Source: Abditibacteriaceae bacterium (GTDB lineage Bacteria > Armatimonadota > Abditibacteriia > Abditibacteriales > Abditibacteriaceae). Taken from it: a DNA stretch of 64,000 bases. The translations under genes and the position numbers were made by a program. The stretch covers positions 15,944 to 79,943 of the forward strand of contig DASVRI010000028.1 in the NCBI GenBank assembly GCA_036388675.1, given 5' to 3'. Shown piece after piece: positions 877 to 63,548 of this stretch (positions are counted from its first letter, which is position 1; each line of letters opens with the position of its first letter). Under the pieces are notes generated by a model that was not told where the DNA came from, did no database searches, and was given only the letters and a program-made list of their open reading frames with translations.

Positions 877-1362
877 TTGGAGGACAGTATGAGCAACACA
901 ATCAACTTCGATGCAACGATAGAAGCCGCTGGCACAACGGCTGGAGAATTCGTGCTACGTCGCGGCAAGATCTTCGAGGCTGGAAAATTTCCTGAACTGG
1001 GCGGGTTCGAGGTCACACCCGAGGAAGCGAAAGCGGCTGTCGCTGCGTTCAAGCCGTGCGCGGTCAACCTTGAGCACACTTCGTCGCTGCTCGATAACAA
1101 ACTCGGGAGCCTGCTTTCTGTAGAAATGGGCGCCGATGGCAAGTCGATTTTCGGGGTACTCGCTGAACCAAAATGGCTCGCGGACCTGGTACCCGAAGGC
1201 AAGCGCAAAGTTTCCATCGAGTTGCACAAGCTGAAAAAGACAATCGAGGGCATTGCGTTGACGCTTTCGCCTCGCAGCCGGACGTCGCCGAGTACTCGCG
1301 CACCAAAGCGGCGCAACTCATCGCGGCCAATAAAGGTGTCCGCTCTTTTTGCTCCTGCGTAG
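877..1362 (+). CDS. Phage-related protein fragment, tentatively Mu gpI-like N-terminal region
   Basis: Pattern GKIFEAGKFPELG..FEVTPEEAKAAVAAF...NLEH...DGKSIFGVL..PKW...VSIEL...IEGIALTLSP resembles the Mu-like prophage protein I architecture, from memory. The 3' end overlaps an opposite-strand gene fragment, so it is probably truncated. Confidence 0.3.
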   Translation: MEDSMSNTINFDATIEAAGTTAGEFVLRRGKIFEAGKFPELGGFEVTPEEAKAAVAAFKPCAVNLEHTSSLLDNKLGSLLSVEMGADGKSIFGVLAEPKWLADLVPEGKRKVSIELHKLKKTIEGIALTLSPRSRTSPSTRAPKRRNSSRPIKVSALFAPA

Positions 1363-1565
1363 CCTTTTCCTCGATGACTTTCACACGAGCGATAGTGTTG
1401 TCCGACACACCGGCAATCTTGGCAAGCTAGGCGCGAGTATTTACAGGTTCTTCCGCTTTTGCACAATTCTGCAAAGGCTGGGGATTCACTCCTCCAGTTG
1501 ATGTGACAAGATTCTCTTTTGCTTTGACTCGAAAGATTTCTTCCAGTTGAAGCGCAAGGCGTGCG
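1290..1565 (-). pseudogene. ParB/KorB-like HTH gene remnant (no start codon, in-frame TAG)
   Basis: Minus-strand frame reads ERARLALQLEEIFRVKAKENL..GGVNPQPLQNCAKAEEPVNTRA*LAKIAGVSDNTIARVKVIEEKATQEQKE. This is typical of the C-terminal half of phage ParB-like proteins. It is interrupted by an amber codon near 1430 and lacks the N-terminal domain. Confidence 0.35.
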
Positions 1566-1568
1566 CGT

Positions 1569-2039
1569 TCAGGCTACTATGGTGCGAGGCCGACCACCTT
1601 TTTTACCATTGACGCGCGCTGCTGCTGCTTTGGCCGCGCTCTTCTTGGCACCACCAGCCTGCCCCATGCTTTGCACTGTAGATAGCCCAAGCGCGAGACT
1701 CAACACAGCAATCAGCGTCATTTGAACATCCAAGCTATCCCAAAACAGAGCACGACCATCTACAACACGCACATCAGACAGATTCCCATCCGTGGCATCA
1801 TTCAAGCCGCGCAACTCGCGTGCTGGCGTGGCGACAGTGGCGCCGCCACGCAGCGCGATATGAAGTAATCCTGTCGCTGGGTCATATCGCACATCTTCGG
1901 CGTGTGGCTCACGAGCGCGTCGCTCTTCACTTTCACGAGCTATGCGCCGCAAGTCCTCATCCGAATACGGAAACACTGGCAAACGCTTTGGCGTAGCCTT
2001 CTCTGTCGCCTTCATCATACTCAACTCCTTCACCGTCAT
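1569..2039 (-). CDS. DUF2442-domain protein with a C-terminal TM segment and basic GGRPR tail
   Basis: DVRYDPATGLLHIALRGGATVATPARELRGL...VRVVDGRALFWDSLDVQM matches the DUF2442 pattern. It is followed by a hydrophobic segment and ARVNGKKGGRPR. Confidence 0.65.
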   Translation of the reverse strand: MTVKELSMMKATEKATPKRLPVFPYSDEDLRRIARESEERRAREPHAEDVRYDPATGLLHIALRGGATVATPARELRGLNDATDGNLSDVRVVDGRALFWDSLDVQMTLIAVLSLALGLSTVQSMGQAGGAKKSAAKAAAARVNGKKGGRPRTIVA

Positions 2040-2042
2040 TCC

Positions 2043-2282
2043 TCAAGGCACCGGACTGATCCGATCCCACTCACTCAAGAGGTACTCTTGATTAGCTGCT
2101 ACTAACTGCCACGCTTGGCGAATAATGCGGCTGGTGGCGTGCCGGTTCACTTCACGAATGTCTAAGGTATCAAGATTTATTACGACCTCGGCCCCGGCAT
2201 GCCACACGTGAACATGGCGCGGTAGATGGTCATTCGTGTAAATCTTCACGTCAAAGCCGTTGCTTTGTAGAACCGTTGGCAT
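2043..2282 (-). CDS. DUF4160-domain protein
   Basis: MPTVLQSNGFDVKIYTNDHLPRHVHVWHAGAEVVINL...LLSEWDRI matches the DUF4160 consensus (F..YsNDH.PPH.HV). The stop lies 3 nt upstream of the DUF2442 gene start. Start taken at the internal MPTV. Confidence 0.8.
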   Translation of the reverse strand: MPTVLQSNGFDVKIYTNDHLPRHVHVWHAGAEVVINLDTLDIREVNRHATSRIIRQAWQLVAANQEYLLSEWDRISPVP

Positions 2283-2335
2283 ATCTTCCTCGTACATTTA
2301 ATATAACCCAAGCCTTTGGGTTTTTCAAACAGGGC

Positions 2336-2614: not shown

Positions 2615-3832
2615 GAGACCCCTACCCCTGTGTAAAGTAGAATCGACAGCAGGCTGGCGGCGCGGTCGTGATGCAGCGAGTGTTAAAGATGTAACAGTGT
2701 GCAGGTATAGTTATCAGGCGCGGGTAAGTTATTTCGATTTGATGCGCTTGCGCAGCCAAGGCTCACGATAGAACCACGCGAAGCGATGGCAGAACCACAT
2801 AGCCGCGTCAAAGAGGCCTAAAGCAACAATCAATAATCAATAAAGCATCCATAATGCGTAGTGTAAGCGTTTTCAAAGAGTACTTATGTCCCGACCCTGC
2901 TAGGTCATTCGATATAACAGCATTGAATATAAATAAAGTTACATTCATTTCATCGGCGTTTTTGTCAATATTCCGTGCTCAGATTGACCCGCTTCGAGGA
3001 CTCGTTTCAGGTGTCCAAACCATCGTTATATTCAATGAAGTCTCAATATCGCGTTTGATATGATGCACTGCTGTTCTATCTGCGAACGGTTCGCAGATGC
3101 ACCACGTTTATAACTTTGCGTTTAAAGGCGATTCTAGGCGTTGAGGGTGTGAGACTGCGTAAGTGTGCGGACGTTGGGGAATCGGCTGTCAGCGTGGCAC
3201 CAGCACGCGGGAATCAATACAGATTCAGCGCTGAAGCAGCAGCCACAAAACCAAGACTGAACAGACAACTAAAACTGTTGCAACTGTGACAATCTCCCAC
3301 AGACTGGAAGCGGCGAAAGAACCGAGCAGAACAACACTCATACACACTCCGAGACAGTGAACAATTGCAATCCGTACATTCTTGTTGATTTTCATCATTA
3401 TGCAGTTTCACTAATTGCGACGCTGCACACAAAAAGCAAAAGAGCGGGCAACCCGTAGGCTACCCGCTCTTTCCCTGTTTGCTACTTATGTGCGATCTGT
3501 GAGTTAATTGCAGACTCACTCACCCCAGTATTTCACGACTGTCGCTACGTAAGCAGCGGATACTCCTACTGCTAACGCAGCGGCACCAAACAACGCCATC
3601 ATGACATTTCTCCCTTGCTCTTGTTTTTCGCCGCAGGGGATACAGCAAGTCAGTGACCTACTGAACGACAGTTTGTGCGGCAACACACAAAACAAAAAGC
3701 AGAGCAACCCGAAGGCTACTCCGCTCTTTGAGTACTCGTGTTACCTGGTGAACCGTTCCCACACATCCACCAGCCCAAACGCCGCCAGCAGATAGACACC
3801 GATCAATAGCACCGGCGCTGCGCTGTCGGGCG

Positions 3833-4510: not shown

Positions 4511-4519
4511 GAGTACTCG

Positions 4520-8056: not shown

Positions 8057-8866
8057 GTGAGTACTCATTTCACACTGCGCCGCCGTCAGCCCTACCCGCT
8101 CCGGCGTAAACCCCATTCTCGCTGGTTCCAAACAGCCTCTCTGCTATCAGTAGCGCTCGTGGCCTGGTTGCTGTTCACCATTGTGCGTTCGCGGCGCCTC
8201 CTGGTGCAAAGCCGCACGATAGCACAGCAGAGCGCGCAGTTCAAGCGTGACTATTTCGTCGGCAATCCTGCACACACTGCGCTCGAGTATCTTGCCTTGG
8301 GAGATAGCACAGCGGCTGGCTGGGGCGGCAAGAAATTGTCGGAAACTTATGTGCATCAGGTAGCCGTCGCACTGGCAGCACAGGGCTACCGTGTTCGCGT
8401 TATCAACGTCGCAGTCGGCGGCGCTCGGCTGCAGGACGTTTTACGTGACCAGGTGCCTTTCTTGAAGTCTCGGCGCCCTCAAGTTGTGACCGTCAGCGTG
8501 GGAGCCAATGATGCCACACACTTTACATCTACCACTGAGTTCTCACAGCATCTGCATTCGTTGATTGTGGCGTTGCAGGAGAGCACAGCGCAGAAGATTC
8601 TCTTCGCCAATACGCCCGACATGTATCAGGCTCCTGCCTTGCCCCTGCCATTAGCCATCATAGCCAACATATGTGCCCGCAGACAAAATGCGGTTCTGAA
8701 GGCCGCTCTCCAAGGCGCCACTATTCACCCCGTTGATCTATACAATCAAGGCAAGCTGATTTACCACGTCAATCCGGGCCTGTATGCTGCCGACCAATTT
8801 CACCCGTCCGGCCCGGGCTACAGACGCTGGGCTGGGCTGTTCATTCAAGAATTAGAGCCACGGTGA
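8057..8866 (+). CDS. SGNH/GDSL-family hydrolase with an N-terminal TM anchor
   Basis: Contains blocks LALGDSTAAG (GDS), VAVGGARL, VGANDA and DQFHPS (DxxH). Confidence 0.8.
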   Translation: MSTHFTLRRRQPYPLRRKPHSRWFQTASLLSVALVAWLLFTIVRSRRLLVQSRTIAQQSAQFKRDYFVGNPAHTALEYLALGDSTAAGWGGKKLSETYVHQVAVALAAQGYRVRVINVAVGGARLQDVLRDQVPFLKSRRPQVVTVSVGANDATHFTSTTEFSQHLHSLIVALQESTAQKILFANTPDMYQAPALPLPLAIIANICARRQNAVLKAALQGATIHPVDLYNQGKLIYHVNPGLYAADQFHPSGPGYRRWAGLFIQELEPR

Positions 8867-14070: not shown

Positions 14071-14264
14071 ATCAGGTGCTTGTAAGGCTTGGCAGCCGAT
14101 GCACTCAGCCGGCGCTGCGCCGAGTACTCATTGGTTATTGTGCAAAGCCCTACACCGTCAGGAACGTTCACTTTAAAATCTGCTGGGTGAGAATGATTTT
14201 GTAGCGGGCGATGTGGGGCGATAGACCACAAGTTGTGGACGGCTGAAGTCAGTAAGGGAAACAC
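14064..14264 (-). CDS. Hypothetical small protein (66 aa)
   Basis: AAAGGAGGA lies just upstream of the GTG start at 14264. No domain recognised. Confidence 0.35.
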   Translation of the reverse strand: MFPLLTSAVHNLWSIAPHRPLQNHSHPADFKVNVPDGVGLCTITNEYSAQRRLSASAAKPYKHLMC

Positions 14265-18259: not shown

Positions 18260-18500
18260 TTACTTTTCCTTTCGAGTACTCGATTCACACTGAACTTTGT
18301 TTTCTTAGATCGGATTGGGTCAGTGTCTTACATCTGAGATGGGCGATGCCAGAGTGCCGGAGACACAGCCCACAACAAAAATGAGTCCGGTCATGAGAAG
18401 ACAAACGGGTGCCACGAAATCCACCATTTCGTTCTGGGTTCGCGCGTATCCTGCATATTGTGCATTTCGTTTACGGCGGTGCGGGCCGGGCGAGAATTTT

Positions 18501-18586: not shown

Positions 18587-19468
18587 GTGAAAATACTGCT
18601 AACAGGAACAGCCGGGCTTATTGGATCTGCCGTGGCACGCGAGCTTCTCGCTGCCGGGCATGAAGTGCGCGCACTCGATAAAATGCCGCCACGGGACGAC
18701 CTGCGCTCGATGAACATCGAGATGGTTTATGCCGACATCACCGACCGCCTCAGTGTGCTGCGCGCGGCTGAAGGTTGCCAGGCCATCGCGCACCTGGCAG
18801 CTATTCCCAATCCGATGCATGGCGCAGACCGCTTGACTGAGGTCAACGTATGTGGCACGCAGTATATTTTAGAAGCCGCAGAAGCCAACGCTGTAGAGCG
18901 CGTCGTCCTTGCGTCTTCAGCATCAATCTATGGAATGCCATTCGCCCGCCACGCCTTCGAACCCGATTATTTGCCTATGGATGAAGATCATCCCTGCCGT
19001 CCACAAGATGTCTATGCACTCTCCAAGCTCTGCAATGAAGAAGCGGCCGCGACTTACACAAGGCGCGCGGGCATCACGACCGTTTGCCTGCGTCCACCCA
19101 TGGTGCTGGAAATAGGCGGTCATCGGGCACGCTGGCAGCGCCGCATGCTGCGCGGCGCCGGAGATTACAAATCCAATGATATGTGGACGTATCTTGATGT
19201 GCGAGACGCGGCCCGGGCCTTCCGTTTAGGGTTGGAAGTGCCGTTAGAGGGTCATCACCGTCTGCTGCTGGCCGCCCGCGACAGTTGGACTCGTGAAGAC
19301 ATCCGAGTACTCGTGCGCCGTCATTATCCGAATCTGGCTTCTTTTGTCGAACACCTGAACGCCGAGGCGAGCCTCTACAACACGCAGAAGGCAGAAGAAG
19401 TGTTGGGCTTTGTGCCGCAGTATTCGTGGCGCGATGTGGCGGAACTTAACGACGAAAGCGATGTTTAA
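18587..19468 (+). CDS. NAD-dependent epimerase/dehydratase (extended SDR)
   Basis: Contains MKILLTGTAGLIGSAV (GxxGxxG) and YALSKLCNE (YxxxK). Confidence 0.85.
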   Translation: MKILLTGTAGLIGSAVARELLAAGHEVRALDKMPPRDDLRSMNIEMVYADITDRLSVLRAAEGCQAIAHLAAIPNPMHGADRLTEVNVCGTQYILEAAEANAVERVVLASSASIYGMPFARHAFEPDYLPMDEDHPCRPQDVYALSKLCNEEAAATYTRRAGITTVCLRPPMVLEIGGHRARWQRRMLRGAGDYKSNDMWTYLDVRDAARAFRLGLEVPLEGHHRLLLAARDSWTREDIRVLVRRHYPNLASFVEHLNAEASLYNTQKAEEVLGFVPQYSWRDVAELNDESDV

Positions 19469-24218: not shown

Positions 24219-24526
24219 GGCATTATAGCACCTGCATTATCAGCCAAGTCGCACGCAGCCGTGCAACACGTGATTATACCGGACTTTGTGGCATCCCTCG
24301 TCTGCGGAACTATGAGTCGGGCCATTGAACGAGTACTCGTGCACCCAATGCCTTTACCGAATGCCTGTCGCGCCGGTTTGCGGTGTTTCGTTTAGCGACA
24401 GATGGAATAAATTGTTGTCAGACTCAGAGCAGTTGCACCGTAGTCCGTTGCACCGTAGCATCGAAAGCGGCCACATTCGTGCCGAAGAGCCTGCTTACGA
24501 TTAGACAACCGTAGTGGAGCGTACGC

Positions 24527-44916: not shown

Positions 44917-46176
44917 TTACCGGATGAGCGGCCAGGGTGCTGTGGAAGTTCCACATATCCTGGTCGCCAGAGATTGCAACTGCGGTAAAGACGATTGCTT
45001 GAGCAAAACGACCACGGTGCCGCCACTGCCGCCGCCGCTGACGCGTGCTCCGTAGAAGCCATGTGATGGCCCTAATTCCTGCACGGCCTCAACCATGACA
45101 TCGGTTTGGTCACAGCCAAGACCAATCGAACTGTAGCCACGATGCGACTGGACCATCAACTCCCCAACGCTGCGTAACGCCTCTTCCTGGTGTGCATTGG
45201 CGCGGTTTGCATCTGCACACGACTGAAGCAACTGCGCAGCAAGTTGGCAGCGAAAATTCTCATTTACCGGAAAAGAAGCTCCGGCGCGCAACGGATAGGT
45301 GCGCGGAGGATGCACAACCGAAAGCGGGTCATCTACTGCGGTATAACGCGTCAAGAACTCTTCGCCCGTCAAGCTCGGCGGGAGAACGTCGTCGCTGAAT
45401 TTACCTAGTTGCGATGGTGATAATTCAGTAAGAAAGGACAGCGGCGTGGAAAGCGCACCTTCGAGAATTTTCTTGCCCATGAAGGCCGCAGTGCGCGCTG
45501 TTGCATAGGGCGAGTCGGCCACATCATGCTTGACACCGCTGGGCCAGCCCACTACGAGTACTCCATCCGGTAACGGAATCGGAGCACCGAGAATATCGGG
45601 ACGGCATAAAATCGGGAGCAACGTCCCGGCAACGCCATGCGATGAAGCAAGCTGATCCATTAATCCGCAGGGCGCTCCAACAATCTCATTCTCGGCGCGT
45701 TGAGCCAATTTCGCCCGCTCCGTTCCTGCGAAACTCAGGCCCGACAGTTGTTCGAGCGCGCGCAGAGTCGCTACTTCCAGCGCGGCGCTACTGCTGACTC
45801 CCATTGATGTCGGAACATCAGATTCGACCTCGATATTCAAGCCGTGAGTTGGCCACCAGTCATGCGCCTGGCTAAACAGCAGAAGGCATCCCAACGGATA
45901 GCGCGCCCAACGTGGAATTCGTTTTTCATCCAGTTGTTCTCGCCAAGCTGAGTTGGGCTGAGTACTCAGATCACGCAACCAGCCAAGTGGCAGCGGATTC
46001 AGAGGACTTTCCTGTTTGCTCGTAAGCTGAAGTTCCGCTTCGGCGCGCTCTGTGATGGCCACGCGTGTCGCCGCAGAGATTGGCGTCTGCAGCACGAGTG
46101 AGCCGCTGTAATCGGCCACACCGCCCATGAAGTCCAGCCGTCCCGGCGCCTGGCCTTGCCAGACCTGCTCGGCCAT
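44917..46176 (-). CDS. GHMP-family sugar kinase (galactokinase/arabinokinase-like)
   Basis: Contains [14 protein letters not shown] and the GHMP motif [17 protein letters not shown]. Confidence 0.8.
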
Positions 46177-47204: not shown

Positions 47205-48241
47205 GCAGAAACCTTTGTGTAGTGAATAGTTGAAACGGCCTGTAGTTCAGCGGCCTTTTCATCGGGGTCGCTTTCGTTAGTCATCGAGCCGCCACCGATC
47301 TCCGGCCCCGCCAGATACTTGAGCGTGTCCGGCTTGCGCAGCGGCGGATGAAACTCCACATGGAAAGGGTAATACGAGTACTCGTTTCCATCGGTGGGCG
47401 CCTGGTGAATGGCCATGATGTAGGGCATCGGCATTTGCCACAGATTGTCGTAGCGCGTTGTTACCTCACGAATCATCAATCCGAGATCGGAGCACTCTGC
47501 CGAGGTTAAGTCTTGCAGCGAAGACATTGGTCGCTTCGGCAGAATATAGACCTCGTAAGCATAGCGCGCGAACCACGGCACACACGCCATAAACATTTCA
47601 TTCTCAGTAACGACACGCGAACTGTTGGCTTCACGCTGAAGAATTTCCTGCCCTAAATGCCTGCCGGTTTGCCCGAAGAATTTACCGCTGCTTTCAACTT
47701 CTCGCGCTGTGTGACCATAAATCAGATTGCCGGCATAAATTTGACAGTGCGGGTGCGGGTTGGACGTGCCGACCAGCGAGCCTTTGTTTTCAAAAATGAG
47801 AACGTGTTCGATTTCGACGCGAGCACCCAGTTCGACATAGCGCTCGCGCCACAAATCGACAACGGCGTGCGCTTCTTCATCGGTCAGGTCAACAAATGTC
47901 TTCGCGTGATCGGGATGATAGCAGATTACTTCGGCTGTGCCGGTCACGCCTTTGGCCCGATACAACTCATCGGAGATGGCTGGTTCCGGCGCTTCGTTGG
48001 AGAATGTCGGCAGGTCGTTGGTGAAACAGTAGGCCCCGACATATGCCGGGTTCTGTCCCTTCAGGCGCTTGTTGCCGGGACACAGCGCACACGTTGGATC
48101 ATACGAAGGAGGCGCGGCTTCGGCTGGTGCGTGCGTATCACCAATCCAGGGACGCCCACCGCGATGCGAGGTGTACAACACCCACTCCTCGCGCAGAGGA
48201 TGCCAGCGCTGTTCCCACACCAGCCGAGGTTGAGTACTCAT
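47201..48241 (-). CDS. galT: Galactose-1-phosphate uridylyltransferase (class I, HIT superfamily)
   Basis: Contains CALCPGN (Zn site), FENKGSLVGTSNPHPHCQIYA (HxHxQ) and FHVEFHPP. Confidence 0.9.
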   Translation of the reverse strand: MSTQPRLVWEQRWHPLREEWVLYTSHRGGRPWIGDTHAPAEAAPPSYDPTCALCPGNKRLKGQNPAYVGAYCFTNDLPTFSNEAPEPAISDELYRAKGVTGTAEVICYHPDHAKTFVDLTDEEAHAVVDLWRERYVELGARVEIEHVLIFENKGSLVGTSNPHPHCQIYAGNLIYGHTAREVESSGKFFGQTGRHLGQEILQREANSSRVVTENEMFMACVPWFARYAYEVYILPKRPMSSLQDLTSAECSDLGLMIREVTTRYDNLWQMPMPYIMAIHQAPTDGNEYSYYPFHVEFHPPLRKPDTLKYLAGPEIGGGSMTNESDPDEKAAELQAVSTIHYTKVSA

Positions 48242-50905: not shown

Positions 50906-50972
50906 TGTTATGTTCTTTATTACCCATCCAGCGAATTGAGTACTCGGATGTGATGAGCAAACGTCGATAGCG

Positions 50973-52585: not shown

Positions 52586-52615
52586 GTAGTGGTTCCGAGT
52601 ACTCGGAACCACTAC
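52586..52615 (-). terminator. 30-bp perfect palindrome centred on GAGTACTC (intercistronic hairpin)
   Basis: GTAGTGGTTCCGAGTACTCGGAACCACTAC. Lies 23 nt downstream of the GH43-ricin stop (52638) and 78 nt upstream of the abfA start (52508). No clear U-tract. Confidence 0.45.
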
Positions 52616-54092: not shown

Positions 54093-56183
54093 TTAATCGG
54101 GTGTCAGGTGGTGGCCCACGCGCCCCTGCCATCCATCGACAAGAAGCCAGAACAAAATCATGAAGACATCGCCCAATGCCAGGCCCAGGAACATGGGCCG
54201 TGTCTTGCGGTAGCTTTCAATGCCGCCAAAGCGTGTAATCAGCACCTTGCACAACCAACCGACAAAAATTGAAAACCACACCTGATCCATTGTCCAGGTG
54301 AGGCTCATCAGGAATCCCAACGGATGCAGCGGAAACCACAGCAGGCGGCTACGCGCCAGAATCAACGCATAGGTAAAGAGAACTCCCATCAGCAGCCACA
54401 GCCCATTGGCCCAGGTTGCGCTGTCCACGCCTCGGTACAAGTCGTTGGAAAACCAGGCCGGCAATTGCGATCCATGCTTGACGAAAAACCAACTGCCCAG
54501 TGTCAGCGCGCCGTGTTCATAGCCCAATCGGATGCGCATCCAGCAACTCATGCCAAAAGTGATAAGCATGACAGCGAAGATAAGAGCAAGCAGCTTACGA
54601 CCGGGAATGTTGTGATCATAAGCCAGTTTAAACCCTTGGACAAAACTGGGCATCGAAAAGGCGCGCGGATCGCCGACTAACCCGGTGCTGAGAAAGTTTG
54701 CTTGCACCAGGCCATTTTGCGGCGACAGCCAGGTGGCCGGCCCCGAGTTGAAGACCTGCCCGAGTACTCCCAACGGTATCCAGTTGGGTGTCATCAGCAA
54801 CAAGCCGCCTTCAACGACAAGGCGTGTCAGGGCAATCACCATCGCCAGAATCATCAGCCAGATGACCAGCGTTACATCCGGGCGAATGCCGGCCAGCATA
54901 CCCCATGCAAGGATGAAGGCCGACGATGCGATAAAACCCCAGAAAGCGAAGGGATATGACATTGCCTCATTCTCTTCTCCGGGTGATGCCTGGACGCGAT
55001 GAAACGCCCGGCGCGCGATGTGCCCGAAGTGTCGTCGTCCTATCCAAAGCACGAGAACAGCGTAAGCGATGAAGCCGCCAATGCGCTGATAGCTGACGAA
55101 GCTCTTGCCCCAGGCCATTAAACCGTTCGGCATGATGTTGGGCATAAAGCCGCAGTAATAGGCGACGATAAGCTGGAGTTTGACAAACCAGTAGAAAAAC
55201 CAGAACGAGAACGAAACTTCACTTGTGAGCAAATACGTGATGCCGACCACGATGGGCCACACGTAAATTGGCGTTCCAATCGGGCCGTGCATCTGGTTCC
55301 ACGGCGCCTCGCTAAACATCGGGCCGGTATCGATATTCAGCGGCACGCGCGGCACGTCGGGAAAATACAGGTTCAGTCCATTGAGCAACTGAATGAAGAC
55401 GGCGATGCCAAAGCCAACCCACATAATGGGGTTGCGAAAAAAGCGTCCGAGTACTCCATACTGATCGGGACGATCGACATCTTCGGTCATCTCAAGAGGC
55501 AAACGGTTGAGCGGGAAAGCCAGTGCTTCGTGTTCGCCCCACTGGGCGCGCAGCATGACACTGAGGCAGGCCAGGGATCCATACATCGCAAAGATGAGCG
55601 ATCCCCAGGCGACAAGCGGCACGAACCAGGCCCCCCAGGGAATTGTGTCGCTCCCGGACAAACCGTTATACCAACCGTCAACAACTTTGTGGCCGATGGG
55701 GCCGTATGTGCCGCCGTCCGCGTGAAGAGCCGGTGTCATCCACGACGGCAGGTGTTCGTGCCACATCTCAAGCCAATTGTTCTCACGCGTCGCATAATAA
55801 AAGGGTGCAAGCAGTTGCGAGATAAATAATCCCTCACCGCCATGTCCCGGCACCAGAGTCGAAAAGAGGCACGTAATGTAAACCGTCAGAATCTCGTTGC
55901 GCGAAAATGCAAACCGCCGCCCCAACAAGCGCAAGAGCGGGTTAATCACCAACAACAAAGCGAGCAACACACCAACGGCGCTGGGCGGCAGGTGCTGCGC
56001 GCCCATGAAGGTGTTGGACAACTTCACATCAACAATGGGAATGACGTAGCCGAAAAAAACAGCCAGCCCCAGACACAGGAGCACGACACGGAAAGTGATA
56101 CCACCCTCTCGCGCTGAGGTATCTGCCACCGCCGCAACAGGTGCTTCGCTCGCTTGCTGATTTTGTAGTTCAACCTTAGCCAT
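54093..56183 (-). CDS. Large polytopic membrane protein of unknown function, paralog 2
   Basis: 696 aa, paralogous to 33155-35209. Its stop lies 7 nt upstream of the GH43-ricin start, and its start abuts the stop of the CRTAC1-like gene (TAAATG). Confidence 0.8.
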   Translation of the reverse strand: MAKVELQNQQASEAPVAAVADTSAREGGITFRVVLLCLGLAVFFGYVIPIVDVKLSNTFMGAQHLPPSAVGVLLALLLVINPLLRLLGRRFAFSRNEILTVYITCLFSTLVPGHGGEGLFISQLLAPFYYATRENNWLEMWHEHLPSWMTPALHADGGTYGPIGHKVVDGWYNGLSGSDTIPWGAWFVPLVAWGSLIFAMYGSLACLSVMLRAQWGEHEALAFPLNRLPLEMTEDVDRPDQYGVLGRFFRNPIMWVGFGIAVFIQLLNGLNLYFPDVPRVPLNIDTGPMFSEAPWNQMHGPIGTPIYVWPIVVGITYLLTSEVSFSFWFFYWFVKLQLIVAYYCGFMPNIMPNGLMAWGKSFVSYQRIGGFIAYAVLVLWIGRRHFGHIARRAFHRVQASPGEENEAMSYPFAFWGFIASSAFILAWGMLAGIRPDVTLVIWLMILAMVIALTRLVVEGGLLLMTPNWIPLGVLGQVFNSGPATWLSPQNGLVQANFLSTGLVGDPRAFSMPSFVQGFKLAYDHNIPGRKLLALIFAVMLITFGMSCWMRIRLGYEHGALTLGSWFFVKHGSQLPAWFSNDLYRGVDSATWANGLWLLMGVLFTYALILARSRLLWFPLHPLGFLMSLTWTMDQVWFSIFVGWLCKVLITRFGGIESYRKTRPMFLGLALGDVFMILFWLLVDGWQGRVGHHLTPD

Positions 56184-58088
56184 TTAACCGGTTGCAAATG
56201 CCTGCTTGCTAATAACACCTTTGTCTTCGTCCACCTCAACGACTTGACCGGCTGTCACATCCTGCAGCTTCGTTACTTTGCCCGATGGCCAGCGGAGGGT
56301 AATCTCATCAATTTTGTTAGCCTTGCCCAAGCCCAGGGTAATGGGTAACTCGCTCTGTGAGAGATAAGATGAGCCGCTGCGAATCATACGATGCAGTGTG
56401 TCAGTGCCGACTCTAGCCACGACCTGCGTTCCAATCGCACTCTTGTTGCTCCTGGTGCCCTGAAGCACAAGGCGGAGGGAGTTGTTGCCATTACCGCCGT
56501 TGTTTTGCAGCAGAAGTGGCGCTCCGCCGTTCACGGTGACAATGGCGTCTAAATCACCATCCAGGTCGATGTCACTATAAGCAAGGCCACGTCCTACGAT
56601 CTTCTTTTTCAAAGCGACTCCGCTCTGCTCAGCAATCTCACGAAAATTGCTTCGGCCTTCATTGTGGAATAACAGGAGTCGCTGGGCATAACCGACGCGA
56701 GGGTTTTGGGAGCCGAGAGTTTTATCCACATGGCCATTGGCCACAAGGATATCAGGCCAACTGTCGTTATCAACGTCCATAAATGCACAGCCGAAACTCA
56801 GGTAGTTATTGCTGACCCGTCCCACTTGGGAGCGTAACGCAATATCGGTGAATTGACCATTGCCCTCATCATGATAGAGGCCCAGCATCTGGCCCGAATA
56901 ATTACCAATAACCACACTTTCATGGCCGGAGTGATCAATGTCGGCGACATCAATGCCCATGCCCGATCGTACTTGACCAAATGATGAGCGGGAAATTCCT
57001 GCGATTGAAGCAATTTCGCTGAAGGTGCCATTTCGGTTGTTCTTAAAAAGATGATTGAAGAACATGTCATTGGCAACGATTATATCGGGCCAGTTGTCGT
57101 TATTGAAGTCGCACAGTGCCACTCCTAAGCCCCTGCTCACTAAGCTGTCCCCACTCATGCCTAGGCCGTTGCTCCCCGGCCTCTTCGCTTCTGTAGTACT
57201 CCGGGCTTTGGGCTGGATACCCGCCTCAATTGACACGTCAGCGAAACGTCCCTGCCCTAAGTTACGGAAAAGACGGCTCCGCTTACCGGCATATGCGTTG
57301 GGGCTGCTATAAAGTTTTGTGCGGTTGCCCATGACCTGAAATACATCGGAGGCGGGCGTCCAATCTAAATAGTGACAAACAAAAAGATCAAGAGAACCGT
57401 CCCTGTCATAATCGACCCACGCTGCGCTTGTGCTCCAGCCGGAATCGAGTACTCCCGCTTGCTCTGCGACTTCGTGAAACCGGCCATTGCCCACGTTACG
57501 GAACAGGTAGTTTCGTTTCAGGGCTGTGACATAGAGGTCGGGGCGACCGTCATGATCGTAGTCGCCCACCGCGACGCCCATGCCATACATCTCAACTTCA
57601 AGGCCGGATCCCCGAGTCATGTCGCTGAAAGTGCCATTCTTGTTATTGCGATAAAGGGCAGCTATGCTGCGCTGCCCTTGCCTGGGGCGTGGAGCATGCC
57701 TGCCGACAGCAGTCATCGCCTCGGCTCCTTTACGGCTCCCGGCAATCTCACGCTCCGAACTCGTCCACGGCCTGTTGCGAAACGCCTTCACTTCATTCAC
57801 AGTCCAGTCGCGACTATTTACAAGAAAGATGTCCTGGTAACCGTCACCATTGTAGTCAATAAAGGCGACGCCGCTGCCCATGGTCTCCGGCAACAGCATG
57901 CCGCCATAAGCCCCGTTGTTGTGATTAAAGTGAAGACCGGCACGGGCGGTGATGTCGTTGAAGTGGACTGGGATGGATAGCGGTGCTGCCCGACGCGTTT
58001 CAGGTGGTATGGCATCTTGTGGTTTGAAGGCACAGCCTTCGGTGAGCACGGCGAGAACAACAAGGACAATGAGCAAGCCTGCTTTCAT
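56184..58088 (-). CDS. CRTAC1-family lipoprotein (FG-GAP/VCBS repeats plus ASPIC/UnbV domain)
   Basis: Start chosen at MKAGLLIVLVVLAVLTEGC (lipobox). Repeated DYNGDGYQDIF, DYDHDGRPDLY, DYDRDGSLDLF, DFNNDNWPDII and DVDNDSWPDIL. C-terminal UnbV-like region reads SNKSAIGTQV...GSSYLSQSELPITLGLG. Confidence 0.8.
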   Translation of the reverse strand: MKAGLLIVLVVLAVLTEGCAFKPQDAIPPETRRAAPLSIPVHFNDITARAGLHFNHNNGAYGGMLLPETMGSGVAFIDYNGDGYQDIFLVNSRDWTVNEVKAFRNRPWTSSEREIAGSRKGAEAMTAVGRHAPRPRQGQRSIAALYRNNKNGTFSDMTRGSGLEVEMYGMGVAVGDYDHDGRPDLYVTALKRNYLFRNVGNGRFHEVAEQAGVLDSGWSTSAAWVDYDRDGSLDLFVCHYLDWTPASDVFQVMGNRTKLYSSPNAYAGKRSRLFRNLGQGRFADVSIEAGIQPKARSTTEAKRPGSNGLGMSGDSLVSRGLGVALCDFNNDNWPDIIVANDMFFNHLFKNNRNGTFSEIASIAGISRSSFGQVRSGMGIDVADIDHSGHESVVIGNYSGQMLGLYHDEGNGQFTDIALRSQVGRVSNNYLSFGCAFMDVDNDSWPDILVANGHVDKTLGSQNPRVGYAQRLLLFHNEGRSNFREIAEQSGVALKKKIVGRGLAYSDIDLDGDLDAIVTVNGGAPLLLQNNGGNGNNSLRLVLQGTRSNKSAIGTQVVARVGTDTLHRMIRSGSSYLSQSELPITLGLGKANKIDEITLRWPSGKVTKLQDVTAGQVVEVDEDKGVISKQAFATG

Positions 58089-59587: not shown

Positions 59588-60601
59588 TCAAGTGGTGTCA
59601 CCTACCACGAGTTCAACCGGCAAAATCGTTTCCTGGGCAACCTCCTTTTCTTCACACTGCGCCACCAACAGTTTTACCGCAGTGCGAGTTACCTCCAGCC
59701 ACGGTGCTTGAATGGTCGTGAGTTGTAACGCGGGCCGATGCTTGGGAGACAAGCCGTCAAAACCCACTATTGCGACATCGTTGGGCACACCCAAACCTTG
59801 TTGAAGACAAAACCTGGTAATGCCATCTGCAGAAGCATCACTCCAACACGCCACGGCATCGGGGCGCTGCCCTTTGCCCGATAGTAAAATCTTCTGCTCT
59901 TCATGGCTAGGAAACGGCTCGTTACAGCGTGAATGCAGAAGGGTGAGCCCCAGCGCATTGGCCTCATCGTAAAAGGCTTGAGCACGCTCCTGGAGTGTTG
60001 GAGGCATGACCTTCTCAGTGCATCGATAAAGAACTCTCTGGTAGCCTTTTTCGGCAAGATGCCGCACCAGAAGTCTGCTGCCATTGACTTCATCAATGCC
60101 GATAAAGGGCACTCCGGGAATTTTCTCAGCTACGGTAACGATGGGCAGGTGCGACTCGACAATGCGATCAATTAAGGGCGTAATGCTTCTCGCGCAGAGC
60201 ACCAGACCGTCAATTTGCCCATTGAGCAAGCCCAAAAAAATATCCTCGTCACTTTGACCGTGAAAGTGGCCATGGATGAGTAGATCCTTCTGTTGCTCTT
60301 CACAACCGGCCAACATTCCGGCTACAATGGCGGCAAAGAACGGATCGCGTAAATCTAAATTAGTCTCATCATAGAACGAAATGACATTGGTGCGCTTTTT
60401 TCGCAGTGAGCGCGCTACGACATTTGGCCTGTAATGCAATGAGGCAGCGGTGTCTAAAATCCGCTTGCGTGTCGTCGGCGATACCCGCGTTTGACTGTTT
60501 GAGCCATTCAATACAACGGAAGCGGCAGGGATACTCACTCCCGCGTGAGCGGCAACATGAGCTAATGTTGCCGCTCCCTGACGCCGGGAACGAGTACTCA
60601 T
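59588..60601 (-). CDS. LacI-family transcriptional regulator
   Basis: N-terminal HTH reads ATLAHVAAHAGVSIPAASVVLNGS. The rest is a periplasmic-binding-protein-like sugar domain. Start chosen at MSTRSRRQG. Confidence 0.85.
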   Translation of the reverse strand: MSTRSRRQGAATLAHVAAHAGVSIPAASVVLNGSNSQTRVSPTTRKRILDTAASLHYRPNVVARSLRKKRTNVISFYDETNLDLRDPFFAAIVAGMLAGCEEQQKDLLIHGHFHGQSDEDIFLGLLNGQIDGLVLCARSITPLIDRIVESHLPIVTVAEKIPGVPFIGIDEVNGSRLLVRHLAEKGYQRVLYRCTEKVMPPTLQERAQAFYDEANALGLTLLHSRCNEPFPSHEEQKILLSGKGQRPDAVACWSDASADGITRFCLQQGLGVPNDVAIVGFDGLSPKHRPALQLTTIQAPWLEVTRTAVKLLVAQCEEKEVAQETILPVELVVGDTT

Positions 60602-61066
60602 CTTTAATCCCTTGCTGTTTACCATGACCGCGTCATCACATCGATTCAACTTATTAAGCAGATAATTAAGGCGTAAATGCCAGGTTCAACAAACATCTGC
60701 TATTTATTTGATTAAAGGATTGGTCAATTCTACTCTAGAGTATGACCACTTTTTTGAAAGTTTAAACAAAGATATAAATAAAAGCTGAAAATTTCTCAAA
60801 ATGCGTAAGAGGCTTGACCTGTGCCCAACTTAATCGTGCTAGCCATTTAGCGTTCATCACCCGCCGTAACCAGTGTGCTCATCGAACGTTCAGATCCTTT
60901 TCGGCTATTGTGCGAAAATGAATTGCCCGACAGGCATGGCCTTAAACAAGCCCACTGGGTTAACCGCGACAACACTTATTCGGCCAGTTGCTTGTCGCCC
61001 TGGTTCTCTGGCGTGAGCAAGCGAGTACTCGCAAGCGGGCGGAGCACTCGACGAGCGCCTCTGTCC

Positions 61067-62386
61067 TTACGCGTTTGTCGATTCGAAATGAAGATCGGAG
61101 AAATTTAGAAATTGCTCCCAGTCGTAAGCGGTGACATCGTGCTGGCCGCGACGAATGTGGTAACCAATCGTCCCCATGACCGGCTGCTCCAGCGGCGGCA
61201 TGGTTGTGGTATTCAGGCCATCAGTGCCCAGCAGTTTGTACACGGCATGGGCGTGCAGAGCGGACAGAAATTCACCGCGCGGGTCGGCCCACAAATCGTC
61301 TTCGGCACTGGCGATATAAATGGGACGAGGTGCAATCAGCGCGATGAGTTGGTGCTGATCGATCGGCAATTGGTCTTCCTTGCCGTTATATTTTTTGAAG
61401 TTGCCGTTGAACCAGTGCGGAAAACTGCTGTTGATTCTGGCCACTGTTTCCCCGAAACGCCGGCGCGATAAAGCCGCCCCACCACAACCGGAATTATTCG
61501 AAATCACAAGAGCAAACCGCTCATCATGGGCACCGGCCCAGAGCGCGGCCTTACCCAGACGTGAATGTCCCATTACGGCGATACGCTTCACATCAATGTC
61601 GGCGTCGGTTTCAAAGTAATCCAGAGAGCGGCTCAGACCCCATGACCACGCCGCGATGCTGCCCCACTCGTTGGCTTCGGGCTTGCTTTGACCCACGCGG
61701 TAGAACAAGGGCTGCACACCATTTTGAAAGCCATCGTCGAAGTCGGGGTCGAGGTCGCCGTAATAGGCCGTTGCGACAGCATAGCCTCGCTCCAGGATGC
61801 GTTCTACGGGCCAGCGAGCGGCCTGCACACCGCGCAAAGCTTCGGTCGCTTTGTTTTGCGTGATACCCCACTGCTCATTGTTGTCCACCCACGATTGTGT
61901 GAGCGCGATGGCGGGATCGGAATGAATGGTGTGATTACCGTGAAAGTTTAGCCCCATGACAAGTGGCGCCGGTTGCCTGCGGTCGTTGGGCAAATAGATG
62001 AGCAGATCTATCTTCGGCCCTTCCGGGCTGGTTGTGAAGTGAATTGTAATCTGCTTGCGTGTTGCCGTGCCGTTCAGCGCATTCTTTTCGACCGAAACTG
62101 TTTCGAAGCGCAGTCCCGTGGGCCGGCCCGGCATGGTGCCGTAAACATGCTCTTCAAACAGCCGCAGGATCTCGGCACGCCGCTGTTGCCACCACACTGG
62201 TTCATCGCTTACCGGCGTGCCGTCTGCGCACGTCAATGCGTCAGGAAGCGAGTACTCGGGGACTTCGGCTTCGTCGTAAATCGGTTCCGCCACCTGTGCA
62301 CCGACCGGCATAACGCACAAAGCAACCGCCACCACTATCAGGACAAGCAGCGAGGGTGACAGCAGCATCTCACTTAACGTGTTCAT
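61067..62386 (-). CDS. Secreted carbohydrate esterase, CE15-like (glucuronoyl esterase type)
   Basis: Signal peptide present. Contains [75 protein letters not shown]. Family assignment is from memory. Confidence 0.65.
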
Positions 62387-62571
62387 TGTGTTTCCGCCTT
62401 TTCCACCCGGCAAGACCGCGCATCGGACATATGCCGACAAAGGCAAGTATGAGATTCCTTGAATAAGAAACGCTCCACGAGCGCTGCGCGACATGAACTT
62501 GCAAAGAGCGCGAAGCATTTCACAACCGCAGCCGCGAGATGCTTGATAGAGAAGCGTTGACGAGTACTCAA

Positions 62572-63420
62572 TTAGTCGGTTTTGATGCGCTCCACCAGTT
62601 TCACGAGACGCTGCCCATATTCGACATAGGTGTTAAATGCCGCGTCTTCGTTGCTGATTTCTTTACCTTCATGCACCACAGATTGCATGTGCGGCTCAAT
62701 GGAAATAAAGCCGTTGTAGCCGGTTGCAAACACATCACGTAGGGTTTCCTCAACCTTGCTGGCACCGCTATCGGGGAAAACGTGGCTACCTTTTTCGCCG
62801 TTCTGCGCTTCCGTGTGCGCCTTGATGTGAATGTAGGCGATGTGCGGTTTGGCAGCTTGGTACCATTCCCATGTGTTGCCCTCGCCGTGTGATGCCGGGT
62901 TTCCCGTATCGTAAACAGCCTTGACCGCAGGGGAATTCACCATCTCAAAAAAGCGTCCGTAATTCTGCGCCGAAGAGCTGGCATAACCATCACAGTTCTC
63001 AACCATCAAGACAATGCCACCATCTTCCGCCATCTTAGCGAGTTCTTTGAACCGGCGCACGGCTTCATCGCGCCACTGATCGTCGGCTAGCCCATCATTC
63101 GGGTAGCTCATAACACGGATGAACTTTGTGTTCAACTTCTGCATACGCCGGATCGCGCGTTGCAACGTGTCTGTCGATTGATCGAAAGGATCGGTGATTT
63201 TCGTGGCCCAGTTGGCGATACCCGAAGCAAAGGCCGACACTTCGATGTTCGCTTCCGCCAGTTGGCTACAAACCTGATCGAACTTTTCATCCGATACATC
63301 GGTGAACTGCGTGCCGTCCACATTGCGCACTTCGATGTAGTTCCAGCCCAGCGTCTTGTGCGCGCGAATTTGTGTCGCTAAGTCCTTGCCTGCCTCATCT
63401 GCGATTCCGGAGAAATTCAT
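62572..63420 (-). CDS. Sugar phosphate isomerase/epimerase (xylose isomerase-like TIM barrel)
   Basis: [11 protein letters not shown] is a typical family N-terminus. GAGGA RBS lies 5 nt upstream of the ATG at 63420. The track ORF starts at 63450. Confidence 0.75.
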
Positions 63421-63461
63421 GCTATCCTCGATTTGTTGTGGTGTCTGCAATTCTTTATAGC

Positions 63462-63493
63462 AAAAAACCCCACGGGATGCCGTGGGGTTTTTT
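63462..63493 (-). terminator. Intrinsic terminator downstream of rpsI
   Basis: AAAAAA-CCCCACGG-GATG-CCGTGGGG-TTTTTT, an 8-bp GC stem flanked by A and T runs (bidirectional). Confidence 0.75.
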
Positions 63494-63548
63494 GAAGGTC
63501 TTTAATTTGTTGGCGAGTACTCGCAGCAGGTTCCACGCACCCGAGCAA

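Follow-up and report, generated by a model that had tools for sequence, protein, structure and literature searches.

The over-abundance of the palindromic octamer GAGTACTC in the DNA of an uncultured soil bacterium from the poorly known family Abditibacteriaceae was confirmed, and its placement, together with codon alignments, supports a constraint on the DNA itself rather than on the encoded peptides. In the window (the whole 64-kb stretch of DNA that was analysed), 32 exact copies were counted at positions 1290 to 63515, compared to an average of 0.36 (at most 2) in 100 dinucleotide-preserving shuffles of the window and an expectation of 0.37–0.94 under Markov models of order 0–3. The runner-up among palindromic 8-mers occurred only 6 times. 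The sequence-only reading had listed the same 32 copies against about one expected, and the recount also returned its numbers for the longer forms CGAGTACTCG (16 copies) and YGAGTACTCR (27 of the 32); its figure of at least 14 one-mismatch copies was exceeded, with 33 found and AGTACT kept in 15. Another 12 copies were present in approximately 18 kb of flanking contig (5 in 8.4 kb on the left and 7 in 9.4 kb on the right), so the excess is not local. The extended contig holds 44 copies in 81.9 kb versus 0.44 expected under a masked order-2 model, an approximately 100-fold excess with one copy per ~1.3–2 kb. The data examined comprise ~82 kb of this genome and ~21 kb per relative, mostly the ribosomal-protein operon, and a genome-wide statement is therefore an extrapolation. 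Position −1 of the copies was C in 68% and T in 24%, position −2 showed no preference, and no conservation was found across copies past position ±1 (YGAGTACTCR); therefore, the octamer is not part of a longer repeat family.

Table 1. Exact copies of GAGTACTC in the window, with gene strand in brackets.
Coordinates	Location	Frame and residues, or neighbouring feature
1290..1297	hypothetical CDS (+)	frame 2, P-S-T-R
3730..3737	convergent intergenic	stop of small minus-strand ORF 3 bp before
4511..4518	intergenic	adjoins 5' end of tRNA-Arg(CCT), 4438-4510, minus
8059..8066	intergenic	GDSL lipase gene 92 bp downstream
14122..14129	divergent intergenic region	
18274..18281	divergent intergenic	AP_endonuc_2-family start 14 bp downstream
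19305..19312	epimerase CDS (+)	frame 1, R-V-L-V
21023..21030	GH127 CDS (-)	frame 1, R-V-L-G
24331..24338	divergent intergenic	
26573..26580	cation-efflux CDS (+)	frame 1, R-V-L-I
28388..28395	Tricorn/PD40 CDS (+)	frame 0, E-Y-S
30981..30988	DUF5060 CDS (+)	frame 1, R-V-L-N
31915..31922	convergent intergenic	PhyH stop 31 bp before
35341..35348	intercistronic	194 bp past GH106 stop, DUF6785 start 32 bp on
38232..38239	RGI-lyase CDS (-)	frame 2, A-S-T-R
39816..39823	RGI-lyase CDS (-)	frame 2, A-S-T-R
40709..40716	GH43 CDS (-)	frame 0, E-Y-S
43034..43041	alpha-L-fucosidase CDS (-)	frame 2, T-S-T-L
45556..45563	GHMP-kinase CDS (-)	frame 1, G-V-L-V
45960..45967	GHMP-kinase CDS (-)	frame 2, L-S-T-Q
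47376..47383	GalT CDS (-)	frame 0, E-Y-S
48232..48239	GalT start, ATGAGTACTCAA	M-S-T-Q
50938..50945	intercistronic, two alpha-L-arabinofuranosidase genes	27 bp past stop, start 32 bp on
52597..52604	intercistronic	middle of perfect 30-bp palindrome, 11-nt arms either side
54762..54769	DUF6785 CDS (-)	frame 1, G-V-L-G
55449..55456	DUF6785 CDS (-)	frame 1, G-V-L-G
57447..57454	FG-GAP/ASPIC CDS (-)	frame 1, G-V-L-D
60592..60599	LacI-family regulator start, ATGAGTACTCGT	M-S-T-R
61023..61030	intercistronic	glucuronoyl-esterase-like gene stop 36 bp before
62250..62257	glucuronoyl-esterase-like CDS (-)	frame 0, E-Y-S
62562..62569	intercistronic	AP_endonuc_2-family gene stop 2 bp before
63515..63522	ribosomal protein S9 stop 26 bp before	terminator-like hairpin directly after

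Based on the public collection's gene calls for this contig, 13 of the 32 copies in the window are intergenic, rather than 11 as first read from the sequence, and 19 are coding; the earlier statement that every reading frame is used held. Across the extended contig, the 25 coding copies fall into frames 0, 1 and 2 in numbers of 6, 10 and 9, and synonymous-codon shuffling yielded only 1.4 ± 1.2 coding copies (maximum 6). The copies inside genes (57%) are in frame and free of indels. Intergenic copies numbered 19 of 44 versus 7.6 expected (p = 5e-5), with a density of 0.8–1.9 per kb across all three intergenic classes, divergent promoter regions included, versus 0.37 per kb in CDS. The intergenic density is ~3.8-fold the coding density and reaches its maximum, 1.85 per kb, in intercistronic spacers between genes of the same strand. 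According to the codon alignments, the motif arises through synonymous changes or at the expense of conserved residues. In ribosomal protein L15, three synonymous changes within the conserved GLRVLG spell the motif, and in L2 of a relative the conserved QYED has become EYSD, spelling TCGAGTACTCGGA, which misses the complete 12-mer of that lineage by one base. The synonymous shuffle, the use of three frames and the codon alignments bear out the earlier proposal of a nucleic-acid rather than a peptide constraint, and orthologues from relatives, whose alignment had been suggested as a check, show that synonymous changes do create the motif.

Related lineages were shown to have swapped the word wholesale for AGTACT-core dialects of their own. 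SecY of the contig shares 76% identity with its Abditibacterium utsteinense counterpart; the tree, built by neighbour-joining on SecY alone, carries no support values. The dialects (YGAGTACTCR, TCGAGTACTCGA, CATGAGTACTCATG, GGAGTACTCC, GCAAGTACTTGC and AAAGTACTTT) are each dominant in one lineage and reach 12–16 bp in the relatives; comparable lineage-specific DUS dialects are known in Neisseriaceae (PMC3630211). Motif copies were conserved between relatives in 23/31 and 23/27 cases versus a 46% background, in 6/11 and 6/8 versus 27%, and in 4/4 versus 53%, and the conserved copies include spacers whose flanks have diverged past alignment. The distribution within the family is patchy, and the A. 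utsteinense type strain lacks the motif. In the Abditibacterium clade, GTAC occurred 2 times versus 75–92 expected in 86.7 kb (~40-fold avoidance, P ~1e-29), which argues that GTAC-specific restriction-modification circulates in the family. Two lineages within the same SecY clade (loci L171 and L088) carry REP-like hairpins with outer arms RAGTAC...GTACTY, the two halves of the motif, namely rAGTACGGTCGAwwTCGACCGTACTy (−18.8 kcal/mol) and AAAGTACGCC-loop-GGCGTACTTT (−13.8 kcal/mol).

The copies were evenly spaced. Under a null model stratified by CDS and intergenic sequence, 7.6 gaps below 312 bp were expected, whereas 312 bp was the smallest gap observed (P = 1e-4); the coefficient of variation of the gaps was 0.71 (P = 0.002), and 0.46–0.61 in the relatives. 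The folding energy of CGAGUACUCG is 0, motif-centred windows folded no better than controls (−7.72 versus −7.63 kcal/mol), and long hairpins contain ~5% of the copies, a few of them at the apex. We infer that the word is recognised as duplex DNA rather than as a hairpin. Since no hairpin is formed and conservation ends at YGAGTACTCR, the word does not match a MITE or REP element.

Among the four drivers that the sequence-only reading had listed without preference, none was proved. We put the chances at about even that GAGTACTC is a genomic word of the HIP1/DUS type that a lineage-specific protein recognises in duplex form and that likely serves as a self-DNA tag. The word would be kept up, as a short duplex palindrome, by pressure on the DNA itself; a symmetric lineage-specific protein would read it in double-stranded form, and shifts in the specificity of this reader would give rise to the dialects. 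Candidates for the reader are a receptor that binds DNA and an orphan methyltransferase for the nested GTAC/AGTACT, alone or together. Selection for coverage would place a tag on every 1–2 kb DNA fragment. Copies are denser in spacers, where they carry no cost; DUS and USS likewise concentrate in permissive sites (10.1101/2025.10.24.684340). By analogy, the most likely use would be a mark of self-DNA for uptake or recombination, with a strand or self mark in methyl-directed repair as a close second. Tagging for uptake or recombination is established for DUS/USS and was recently proposed for methylated HIP1, which increases transformation efficiency (10.1101/2024.09.10.611283), and HIP1 abundance tracks the DNA-uptake machinery (10.64898/2026.06.24.733823). 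As dialects of 12–16 bp exceed classical Type II methyltransferase sites, methylation alone cannot specify them. None of the proteins that could act as reader (a methyltransferase, a restriction enzyme, Vsr, a competence receptor or another candidate) appears in the Pfam lists for the 82 kb, and, with the search limited to this stretch, the link between the word and a protein is purely inferential. To our knowledge, none of the known uptake sequences is palindromic.

The word may instead be a functionless by-product, with an AGTACT/GTAC methyltransferase and very-short-patch or methyl-directed repair converting near-cognate sites to the palindrome, as Vsr does for CCWGG in E. coli. We consider this doubtful. 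Methylation-linked biased repair is the model of Elhai for HIP1 (PMC4390886), and it would account for the core being the ScaI hexamer around GTAC, the concentration of one-off variants at the outer bases (7–10-fold enriched versus just 1.5–2.8-fold for inner bases), the ~3-fold excess of AGTACT beyond the full motif (22 versus 7.4 expected), the GTAC avoidance in the sister Abditibacterium clade and the patchy phylogeny, which is consistent with a mobile methyltransferase being gained and lost. However, it predicts random spacing, contrary to the absence of short gaps, and the 12–16-bp dialects are longer than known methyltransferase specificities. The putative deamination products GAGTATTC and GAATACTC (5 versus 1.7 and 3 versus 1.2) were graded as not enriched, and the 82 kb hold no methyltransferase or Vsr gene.

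An origin as a miniature REP-like element, either the minimal relic or the target site of a hairpin system, whether REP/RAYT-type or not, or an intercistronic RNA processing or stability element, appears improbable. REP/REPIN elements with their RAYTs are also short species-specific palindromes in hundreds of copies that favour intercistronic and 3' spacers (PMC2817692; PMC3116915), in line with the intergenic density peak, with the ribosomal-protein operon of one relative, where 15 of 17 copies lie in spacers (~one each), with the hairpins of the two same-clade lineages and with the few apical copies. REPs, however, are imperfect hairpins of 20–40 nt that occur only outside genes and multiply by insertion, whereas the word here is 8–10 bp long and unfolded, and its in-frame, indel-free genic copies are not producible by element insertion. 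The end of conservation at 10 bp, the control-like folding of the motif windows and the copies in divergent promoter regions also speak against it; this organism has no split AGTAC...GTACT elements, and no Y1-transposase domain was found in the 82 kb.

Slightly less credible again is a chromosome-organising role in which the copies bind an abundant dimeric regulator of the nucleoid-associated or nucleoid-occlusion type. The perfect dyad and the 10–16-bp dialects are typical of helix-turn-helix dimer sites, the even spacing is compatible, and a role in chromosome architecture has been suggested for HIP1 (PMC5861425). The E. coli SlmA-binding sites, with the documented consensus GTGAGTACTCAC, contain the same octamer (PMC3020112), so a helix-turn-helix dimer is able to read the palindrome. 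Nevertheless, the flanking preferences described above are not the GT...AC of SlmA; known site sets number tens per genome, versus one copy per 2 kb here, and those of SlmA, read by a gammaproteobacterial TetR-family protein, are absent from the terminus region. No suitable protein came to light, and the SlmA resemblance is one of sequence, with no evidence for homology or shared function. Finally, the two outcomes named beforehand as overturning the finding, an artefact (assembly chimera, contaminating adapter or linker) or one local repeat family (a long repeat, tandem or dispersed), gained no supporting point and have practically no probability left, being refuted by recovery of the same contig, of 124.6–124.7 kb, in ENA and JGI assemblies and of a 4.25-kb piece as a Logan contig (three independent assemblies, which discounts an assembly or cloning artefact), by the 12 flanking copies, by in-frame copies within conserved genes, by unrelated flanks and by the abundance of the word in relatives from separate samples and studies.

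The comparison with known systems supports cyanobacterial HIP1 as the closest analogue, as the sequence-only reading had suggested. HIP1 (GCGATCGC) and its alternates are likewise palindromic octamers nesting a restriction-type hexamer and tetramer (PMC4390886; PMC5861425), tens to hundreds-fold over expectation at ~one per 1–2 kb, located in genes (all frames) and spacers and conserved past background with no codon or peptide preference behind it. They share the one-off variants at the first or last base, as reported by Elhai (PMC4390886), as well as lineage-specific alternates, extended flanks and a non-random spatial distribution. In contrast to HIP1, the present word belongs to the phylum Abditibacteriota, has an A+T-centred core (AGTACT/GTAC instead of CGATCG/GATC), is patchy within one family, has dialects of up to 12–16 bp and has sister lineages with same-arm REP-like hairpins; the best-documented partners of HIP1 are cognate methyltransferases, and none was found in the 82 kb. 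No earlier description of a GAGTACTC element was found in the literature; new here are the Abditibacteriaceae host, the dialects of individual lineages, the evenness of the spacing, the connection with REP-like hairpins in sister lineages and the GTAC avoidance of the Abditibacterium clade. With its relatives' own variants, the word is a second, independent counterpart of the long-unexplained HIP1.

The uptake sequences DUS (Neisseriaceae) and USS (Pasteurellaceae) also occur at ~one per kb (PMC3630211; PMC3868556; 10.1101/2025.10.24.684340), gather in spacers, terminator hairpins and variable gene parts, use tolerated frames within genes, and show lineage dialects around a conserved core and genome-wide takeover by a word. 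They are asymmetric 9–12-mers in both orientations, whereas GAGTACTC reads the same on both strands; roughly half of DUS/USS lie in terminators, compared with the ~5% of the present copies in long hairpins, and for them a receptor (ComP) and competence are established. At the left edge, a putative integrative element carried copies at near normal density (3–4 in 8.9 kb), which is unexpected for a strict self tag, unless the element is old or its source host shared the dialect.

The palindrome GAGTACTC was present in 32 exact copies in the window, compared to a mean of 0.36 and a maximum of 2 copies in dinucleotide-preserving shuffles and an expectation of 0.37-0.94 copies under Markov models of order 0-3; the runner-up palindromic 8-mer was found six times. 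The counts of the sequence-only reading were reproduced, namely all 32 exact copies at their coordinates, the 16 copies extended to CGAGTACTCG and the 27 copies fitting YGAGTACTCR, and its one-mismatch copies were borne out as well (33 counted, 15 of them with AGTACT kept). Five more copies were located in the 8.4 kb of the left contig flank and seven in the 9.4 kb of the right flank, giving 44 copies in 81.9 kb versus 0.44 expected (order-2 model, masked sequence), an approximately 100-fold enrichment. As judged over parts of genomes (82 kb of the window genome and approximately 21 kb per relative, the latter mostly one operon), this lies within the 15- to 300-fold excess of palindromic octamers that characterizes highly iterated palindromes (HIPs), and it is the opposite of what is expected of a restriction-modification target, a palindrome avoided by its host. 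The base immediately outside the octamer (position -1 and the mirror position) was C (68%) or T (24%), and nothing further out was conserved; the unit is therefore an 8-10-bp word and not a piece of a longer repeat, and a longer repeat family in the window organism was ruled out by the same profile. Variants differing by one base were 7-10-fold over expectation when the change affected the outer positions and only 1.5-2.8-fold when it affected the inner ones. Such a bias of one-nucleotide deviations towards the first or last base is also typical of HIPs, and was unclear, owing to small numbers, in the lineages with the alternative word AAGTACTT. Outside the full word, AGTACT was approximately 3-fold enriched and GTAC mildly depleted.

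The distribution of the copies was evaluated against gene calls for the contig (76 genes, which together take up 82.8% of its length). Coding sequences contained 25 of the 44 copies, spread over frames 0, 1 and 2 (6, 10 and 9 copies) and encoding E-Y-S, R/G-V-L or S-T, while synonymous-codon permutation within each gene yielded only 1.4 +/- 1.2 coding copies (maximum 6). The remaining 19 copies were intergenic, versus 7.6 expected (p=5e-5), and the density per kb reached 1.85 in same-strand spacers, 0.87 in convergent spacers, 0.81 in divergent spacers and 0.37 in coding sequences. As in HIPs, the word thus occupies both coding sequence, in all frames, and non-coding sequence, and codon or peptide usage does not explain it. 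The orthologue alignments proposed in the sequence-only reading as a check for synonymous creation of the motif revealed such a case in ribosomal protein L15, where the conserved GLRVLG is spelled with CGA GTA CTC and relatives use CGC GTT CTT or similar codons, i.e., three synonymous changes. In the TruA codon alignment the copy falls on variable residues, and in the L2 protein of a relative the conserved QYED has become EYSD, spelling TCGAGTACTCGGA, one base short of the 12-mer of that lineage. A sequence-specific pressure acting at the DNA level writes the word into genes and spacers. The same pressure holds the copies apart: they were over-dispersed, with a minimum gap of 312 bp, where 7.6 shorter gaps were expected (P=1e-4), and a gap CV of 0.71 (P=0.002), both relative to a null model in which CDS and intergenic sequence formed separate strata. 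The 10-mer had a folding energy of 0, and windows centred on the word showed no more structure than control windows. Long complementary arms accompanied only 2 of the 44 copies; one of these, the copy at 52597, forms the middle of a perfect 30-bp palindrome. A search for split AGTAC...GTACT elements in the window organism returned none, and the hairpin hypothesis for this organism was ruled out by folding.

Relatives were sampled as SecY-anchored loci (designated by L-numbers) from metagenomes, MAGs and genomes, and the phenomenon was family-wide yet patchy across the Abditibacteriaceae loci, with lineage-specific variants, or dialects, around the AGTACT core.

Iterated words, hairpins and avoided motifs in loci of Abditibacteriaceae
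Loci	Word or element	Occurrence	Example positions
Window and L413 (97% SecY identity)	YGAGTACTCR	44 per 81.9 kb on window contig	
L170 (ENA ERZ26273096 ctg167375_22x_c, a 3.83-Mb contig) and L107	a(a/t)TCGAGTACTCGA(a/t)t	17 per 21 kb; 11 per 12 kb	
L105	gCATGAGTACTCATGc	4 per 4.8 kb	
L093, L096, L098, L144	GGAGTACTCC	1-3 copies per locus, small loci	
L097, L109, L172 (ENA ERZ25039498 contig_19617, a 3.62-Mb genome)	yGCAAGTACTTGCr	17-31 per 21 kb; GAGTACTC zero	
L091	AAAGTACTTT	3 per 2.2 kb	
L171 (ENA ERZ27253121 k141_126382)	24-30-bp palindrome rAGTACGGTCGAwwTCGACCGTACTy	~13 per 21 kb, nearly all intergenic	4926-4960, 9966-10000, 15141-15175
L088	AAAGTACGCC-loop-GGCGTACTTT	7 per 9 kb, intergenic	138-175, 706-745, 3063-3100
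L089, L090, L099, L412	none of these words		
Abditibacterium clade including type strain	GTAC avoided	2 vs 75-92 expected in 86.7 kb	

The preferred sequence of the pressure has shifted between lineages. In the ribosomal-protein operon, lineages that have a word show a single copy in many of the intercistronic spacers (in L170, 15 of the 17 copies are intergenic), and different dialects use the same spacers at non-aligning positions. L171 and L088 lack the 8-bp word and instead bear REP-like hairpins, approximately one per ribosomal-operon spacer, the outer arms of which are halves of the 8-bp words GAGTACTC and AAGTACTT. Both fall into one clade with the window, L413, L105 and L170/L107 in a neighbour-joining tree of SecY, a single-gene tree without support values. 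In the Abditibacterium clade (A. utsteinense GCA_002973605.1, designated L169, and L092, L094, L101, L102 and L103), GTCGAC, GTGCAC, CGTACG and AGATCT were also absent and CGGCCG was strongly depleted, which is a heavy restriction-avoidance signature, the opposite of the enrichment in the window lineage. The ribosomal-operon spacers of A. utsteinense contained eight copies of the non-palindromic (T)TCCACAAAAAATGAAG within 18.6 kb, and three close inverted pairs account for six of these (L169 4052-4200, 8521-8570 and 11397-11435). L089 had tandem ATCGTCAAT runs and L092 AACTTCTAA runs, and the spacer repeat seems to differ from lineage to lineage. Outside the family, CCGGCCGG reached 9-15 copies per 12-21 kb at approximately 50% GC (about 0.3 expected) in L113, L114 and L115 (JGI Ga0100391, Ga0210057 and Ga0100386), whose SecY is 43% identical and hence from another phylum, making it a candidate for another highly iterated palindrome in an unrelated lineage. 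The matches of the 14-mer dialects ATCGAGTACTCGAT and TGCAAGTACTTGCA in IMG/VR were discarded as single chance matches or low-GC viral contigs unrelated to Abditibacteria. Among the unrelated viral contigs, IMGVR_UViG_3300009514_000019 (L370, L316 and L358; 67.8 kb, mostly 36-38% GC) contained nine AAGTACTT and five GCAAGTACTTGC copies in 9 kb, perhaps as a regulatory element repeated in the viral genome.

The persistence of the copies was determined in three pairs of related loci. Between L097 and L109 (87.6% nucleotide identity), 23 of 31 and 23 of 27 copies were kept, compared to 46% of background 8-mers (P=1e-3 and 3e-5). The corresponding values were 6 of 11 and 6 of 8 versus 27% for L107 and L170 (82.6%), and 4 of 4 versus 53% for the window and L413 (90.8%), including one spacer with non-aligning flanks. 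These comparisons are conservative, because background conservation is lower in intergenic DNA, to which most of the compared copies belong. The DNA-level pressure preserves copies as their flanks diverge, and conservation between related genomes above background is another trait of HIPs. Turnover proceeded by point changes (e.g., GAGTGCTC or TAGTACTC in the partner genome) and small indels. Occasional tandem or overlapping copies, such as CGAGTACTTCCGAGTACTCG in the RpoA/L17 spacer (65789-65815 in window coordinates, outside the window) and GCAAGTACTTGCCAAGTACTTGC at L097 20157-20175, a single copy in the close relative L109, suggest that copies are partly gained and lost via small duplications.

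The window word is a HIP by behaviour, and not HIP1 by sequence or host. Five behavioural traits were tested and agreed, and HIP1, which had been named as the closest analogue from the sequence alone, retains that place with regard to excess, occurrence in all frames, conservation and outer-base variants. It differs in that HIP1 is GCGATCGC or a GC-rich alternate in cyanobacteria, whereas here the word is GAGTACTC in Abditibacteriaceae. HIPs are further defined by a partnership with cognate (orphan) methyltransferases for nested sequences; no methyltransferase, restriction enzyme, Vsr or Y1-transposase domain was encoded in the 82 kb of window and flanks, and Pfam assigned no methyltransferase, nuclease or DNA-binding domain to ten unannotated ORFs in or adjoining the window. 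Consistent with the earlier statement that no described element of this sequence was known to its author, neither GAGTACTC nor AAGTACTT appeared as an iterated element in the searchable literature, the coverage of which is incomplete. The same literature returned nothing on palindromes in Abditibacteria or on non-cyanobacterial HIPs, and these negatives together amount to absence of evidence. The occurrence of GGAGTACTCC in PMC8919816 was rejected as a precedent, being merely a ScaI test site for a CTCC methyltransferase.

DNA uptake sequences (DUS/USS) share with the word a density of approximately one copy per kb, lineage dialects (PMC3630211) and enrichment in permissive sites (10.1101/2025.10.24.684340). 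They are asymmetric 9-12-mers, often in inverted pairs forming terminators, whereas the word is a perfect palindrome, and they depend on natural competence and a sequence-specific uptake receptor (PMC3868556). The combination of features seen here is established for DUS/USS and is now proposed for HIP1, as methylated HIP1 raises transformation efficiency (10.1101/2024.09.10.611283) and the DNA-uptake machinery correlates with HIP1 abundance (10.64898/2026.06.24.733823). We infer that a lineage-specific protein would read the word as symmetric duplex DNA, a mechanism with roughly even prospects of being correct, and coverage of at least one copy per 1-2 kb would be under selection. The E. coli SlmA site has the identical octamer at its core (PMC3020112), which shows only that the palindrome can be read by helix-turn-helix dimers.

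The main alternative, biased repair according to Elhai, would make the word a purely mutational by-product. Under this model, copies are expected at close to one per kb and one-base variants mainly at the outer bases (PMC4390886), but the even spacing and the 12-16-bp dialects argue against it, and we consider it improbable. A REP-like or RNA-level role in the window organism is less probable still, because the word does not fold and its copies lie in frame within genes, even if the hairpins of sister lineages suggest an evolutionary connection. REP/REPIN elements proper are 20-40-nt extragenic stem-loops spread by insertion and associated with a RAYT transposase; the word is not one of them, since it is 8-10 bp long, does not fold, enters coding sequences without indels and has no Y1 transposase in the 82 kb. 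Binding sites for a nucleoid protein appear slightly less probable again, and an artefact is practically negligible.

In one Abditibacteriaceae clade, RAGTAC/GTACTY arms occur fused as an 8-bp palindrome invading genes, extended into 12-16-bp dialects, or parted by a lineage-specific stem into 24-30-bp extragenic hairpins; in its sister clade GTAC is purged altogether. These three forms may indicate that HIP-type words and REP-type hairpins are two states of one element class driven by the same machinery, which we propose as a speculative and rather doubtful idea. If it were true, the family would provide a naturally occurring series in which the reader or writer protein could be tracked down and the purpose of HIP1-like repeats worked out. 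Three decades after HIP1 became known, its function is only now being linked to methylation-dependent DNA uptake or recombination. To our knowledge, all work on HIP1 has concerned a single phylum and, in essence, a single sequence. An independent system of the HIP type provides a comparative handle that cyanobacteria do not offer: an unrelated phylum, a different core, several dialects, and close relatives without the word, with REP-like versions or avoiding the core. A gene family tracking presence and dialect across these genomes would be the reader or driver. Such words also distort k-mer-based binning and expectation models, can be used as markers of lineage for metagenomic Abditibacteriaceae contigs, and, together with any cognate methylation, must be reckoned with in attempts to transform these bacteria.

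The window lies within a 124.7-kb metagenome contig, recovered as ENA ERZ27253107 k141_409767 and JGI 3300034781 Ga0334935_000035 and in part by a Logan contig. The right flank is the ribosomal-protein operon, where SecY is 76% identical to that of Abditibacterium utsteinense, a similarity that places the organism in Abditibacteriaceae (Abditibacteriota, formerly FBP). Between rpsK (S11) and rpsD (S4), a 180-aa ORF without a Pfam match (L085 5269-5811, equivalent to 67.6-68.2 kb in window coordinates, beyond the window end; L413 6479-7021) was present only in the window organism and its 97% relative and missing from other Abditibacteriaceae loci. The only Rfam match at gathering thresholds was tRNA-Arg(CCT) (4438-4510, minus strand), adjoining a putative integrative element that spans approximately 1-4510 of the window and 4.4 kb leftward (L084 7500-16415). 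This element encodes a tyrosine integrase, a ParB-like HTH protein, a DUF3987 primase/helicase-like protein, small HTH proteins and a DUF4160/DUF2442 pair, and bears three to four word copies, one within the integrase gene; the GC content was approximately 50% in window 1-8000 versus about 55% elsewhere. A large plant-polysaccharide utilisation cluster (33155-58235, minus strand) comprised three GH43 enzymes, GH106, a rhamnogalacturonan lyase, an alpha-L-fucosidase, two alpha-L-arabinofuranosidases, an FG-GAP/ASPIC protein, a Leloir-type GalT with a GHMP kinase, and two paralogous DUF6785 multi-pass membrane proteins, which may be transporters. GalT was a poor taxonomic marker; the best matches in a GTDB search (80 loci) were Opitutae and Planctomycetaceae at no more than 76% identity, and the word was not found among these best matches. 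A LacI-family regulator was encoded near the cluster, and GH127 at 20831-22735. A secreted BNR/ASH-repeat protein of 1174 aa (9096-12620, minus strand) had an exceptionally Cys-rich C-terminal stretch (CGCKSCCNDCHKGCCEKLHSECCSMQSLDACC) with an acidic tail behind it.
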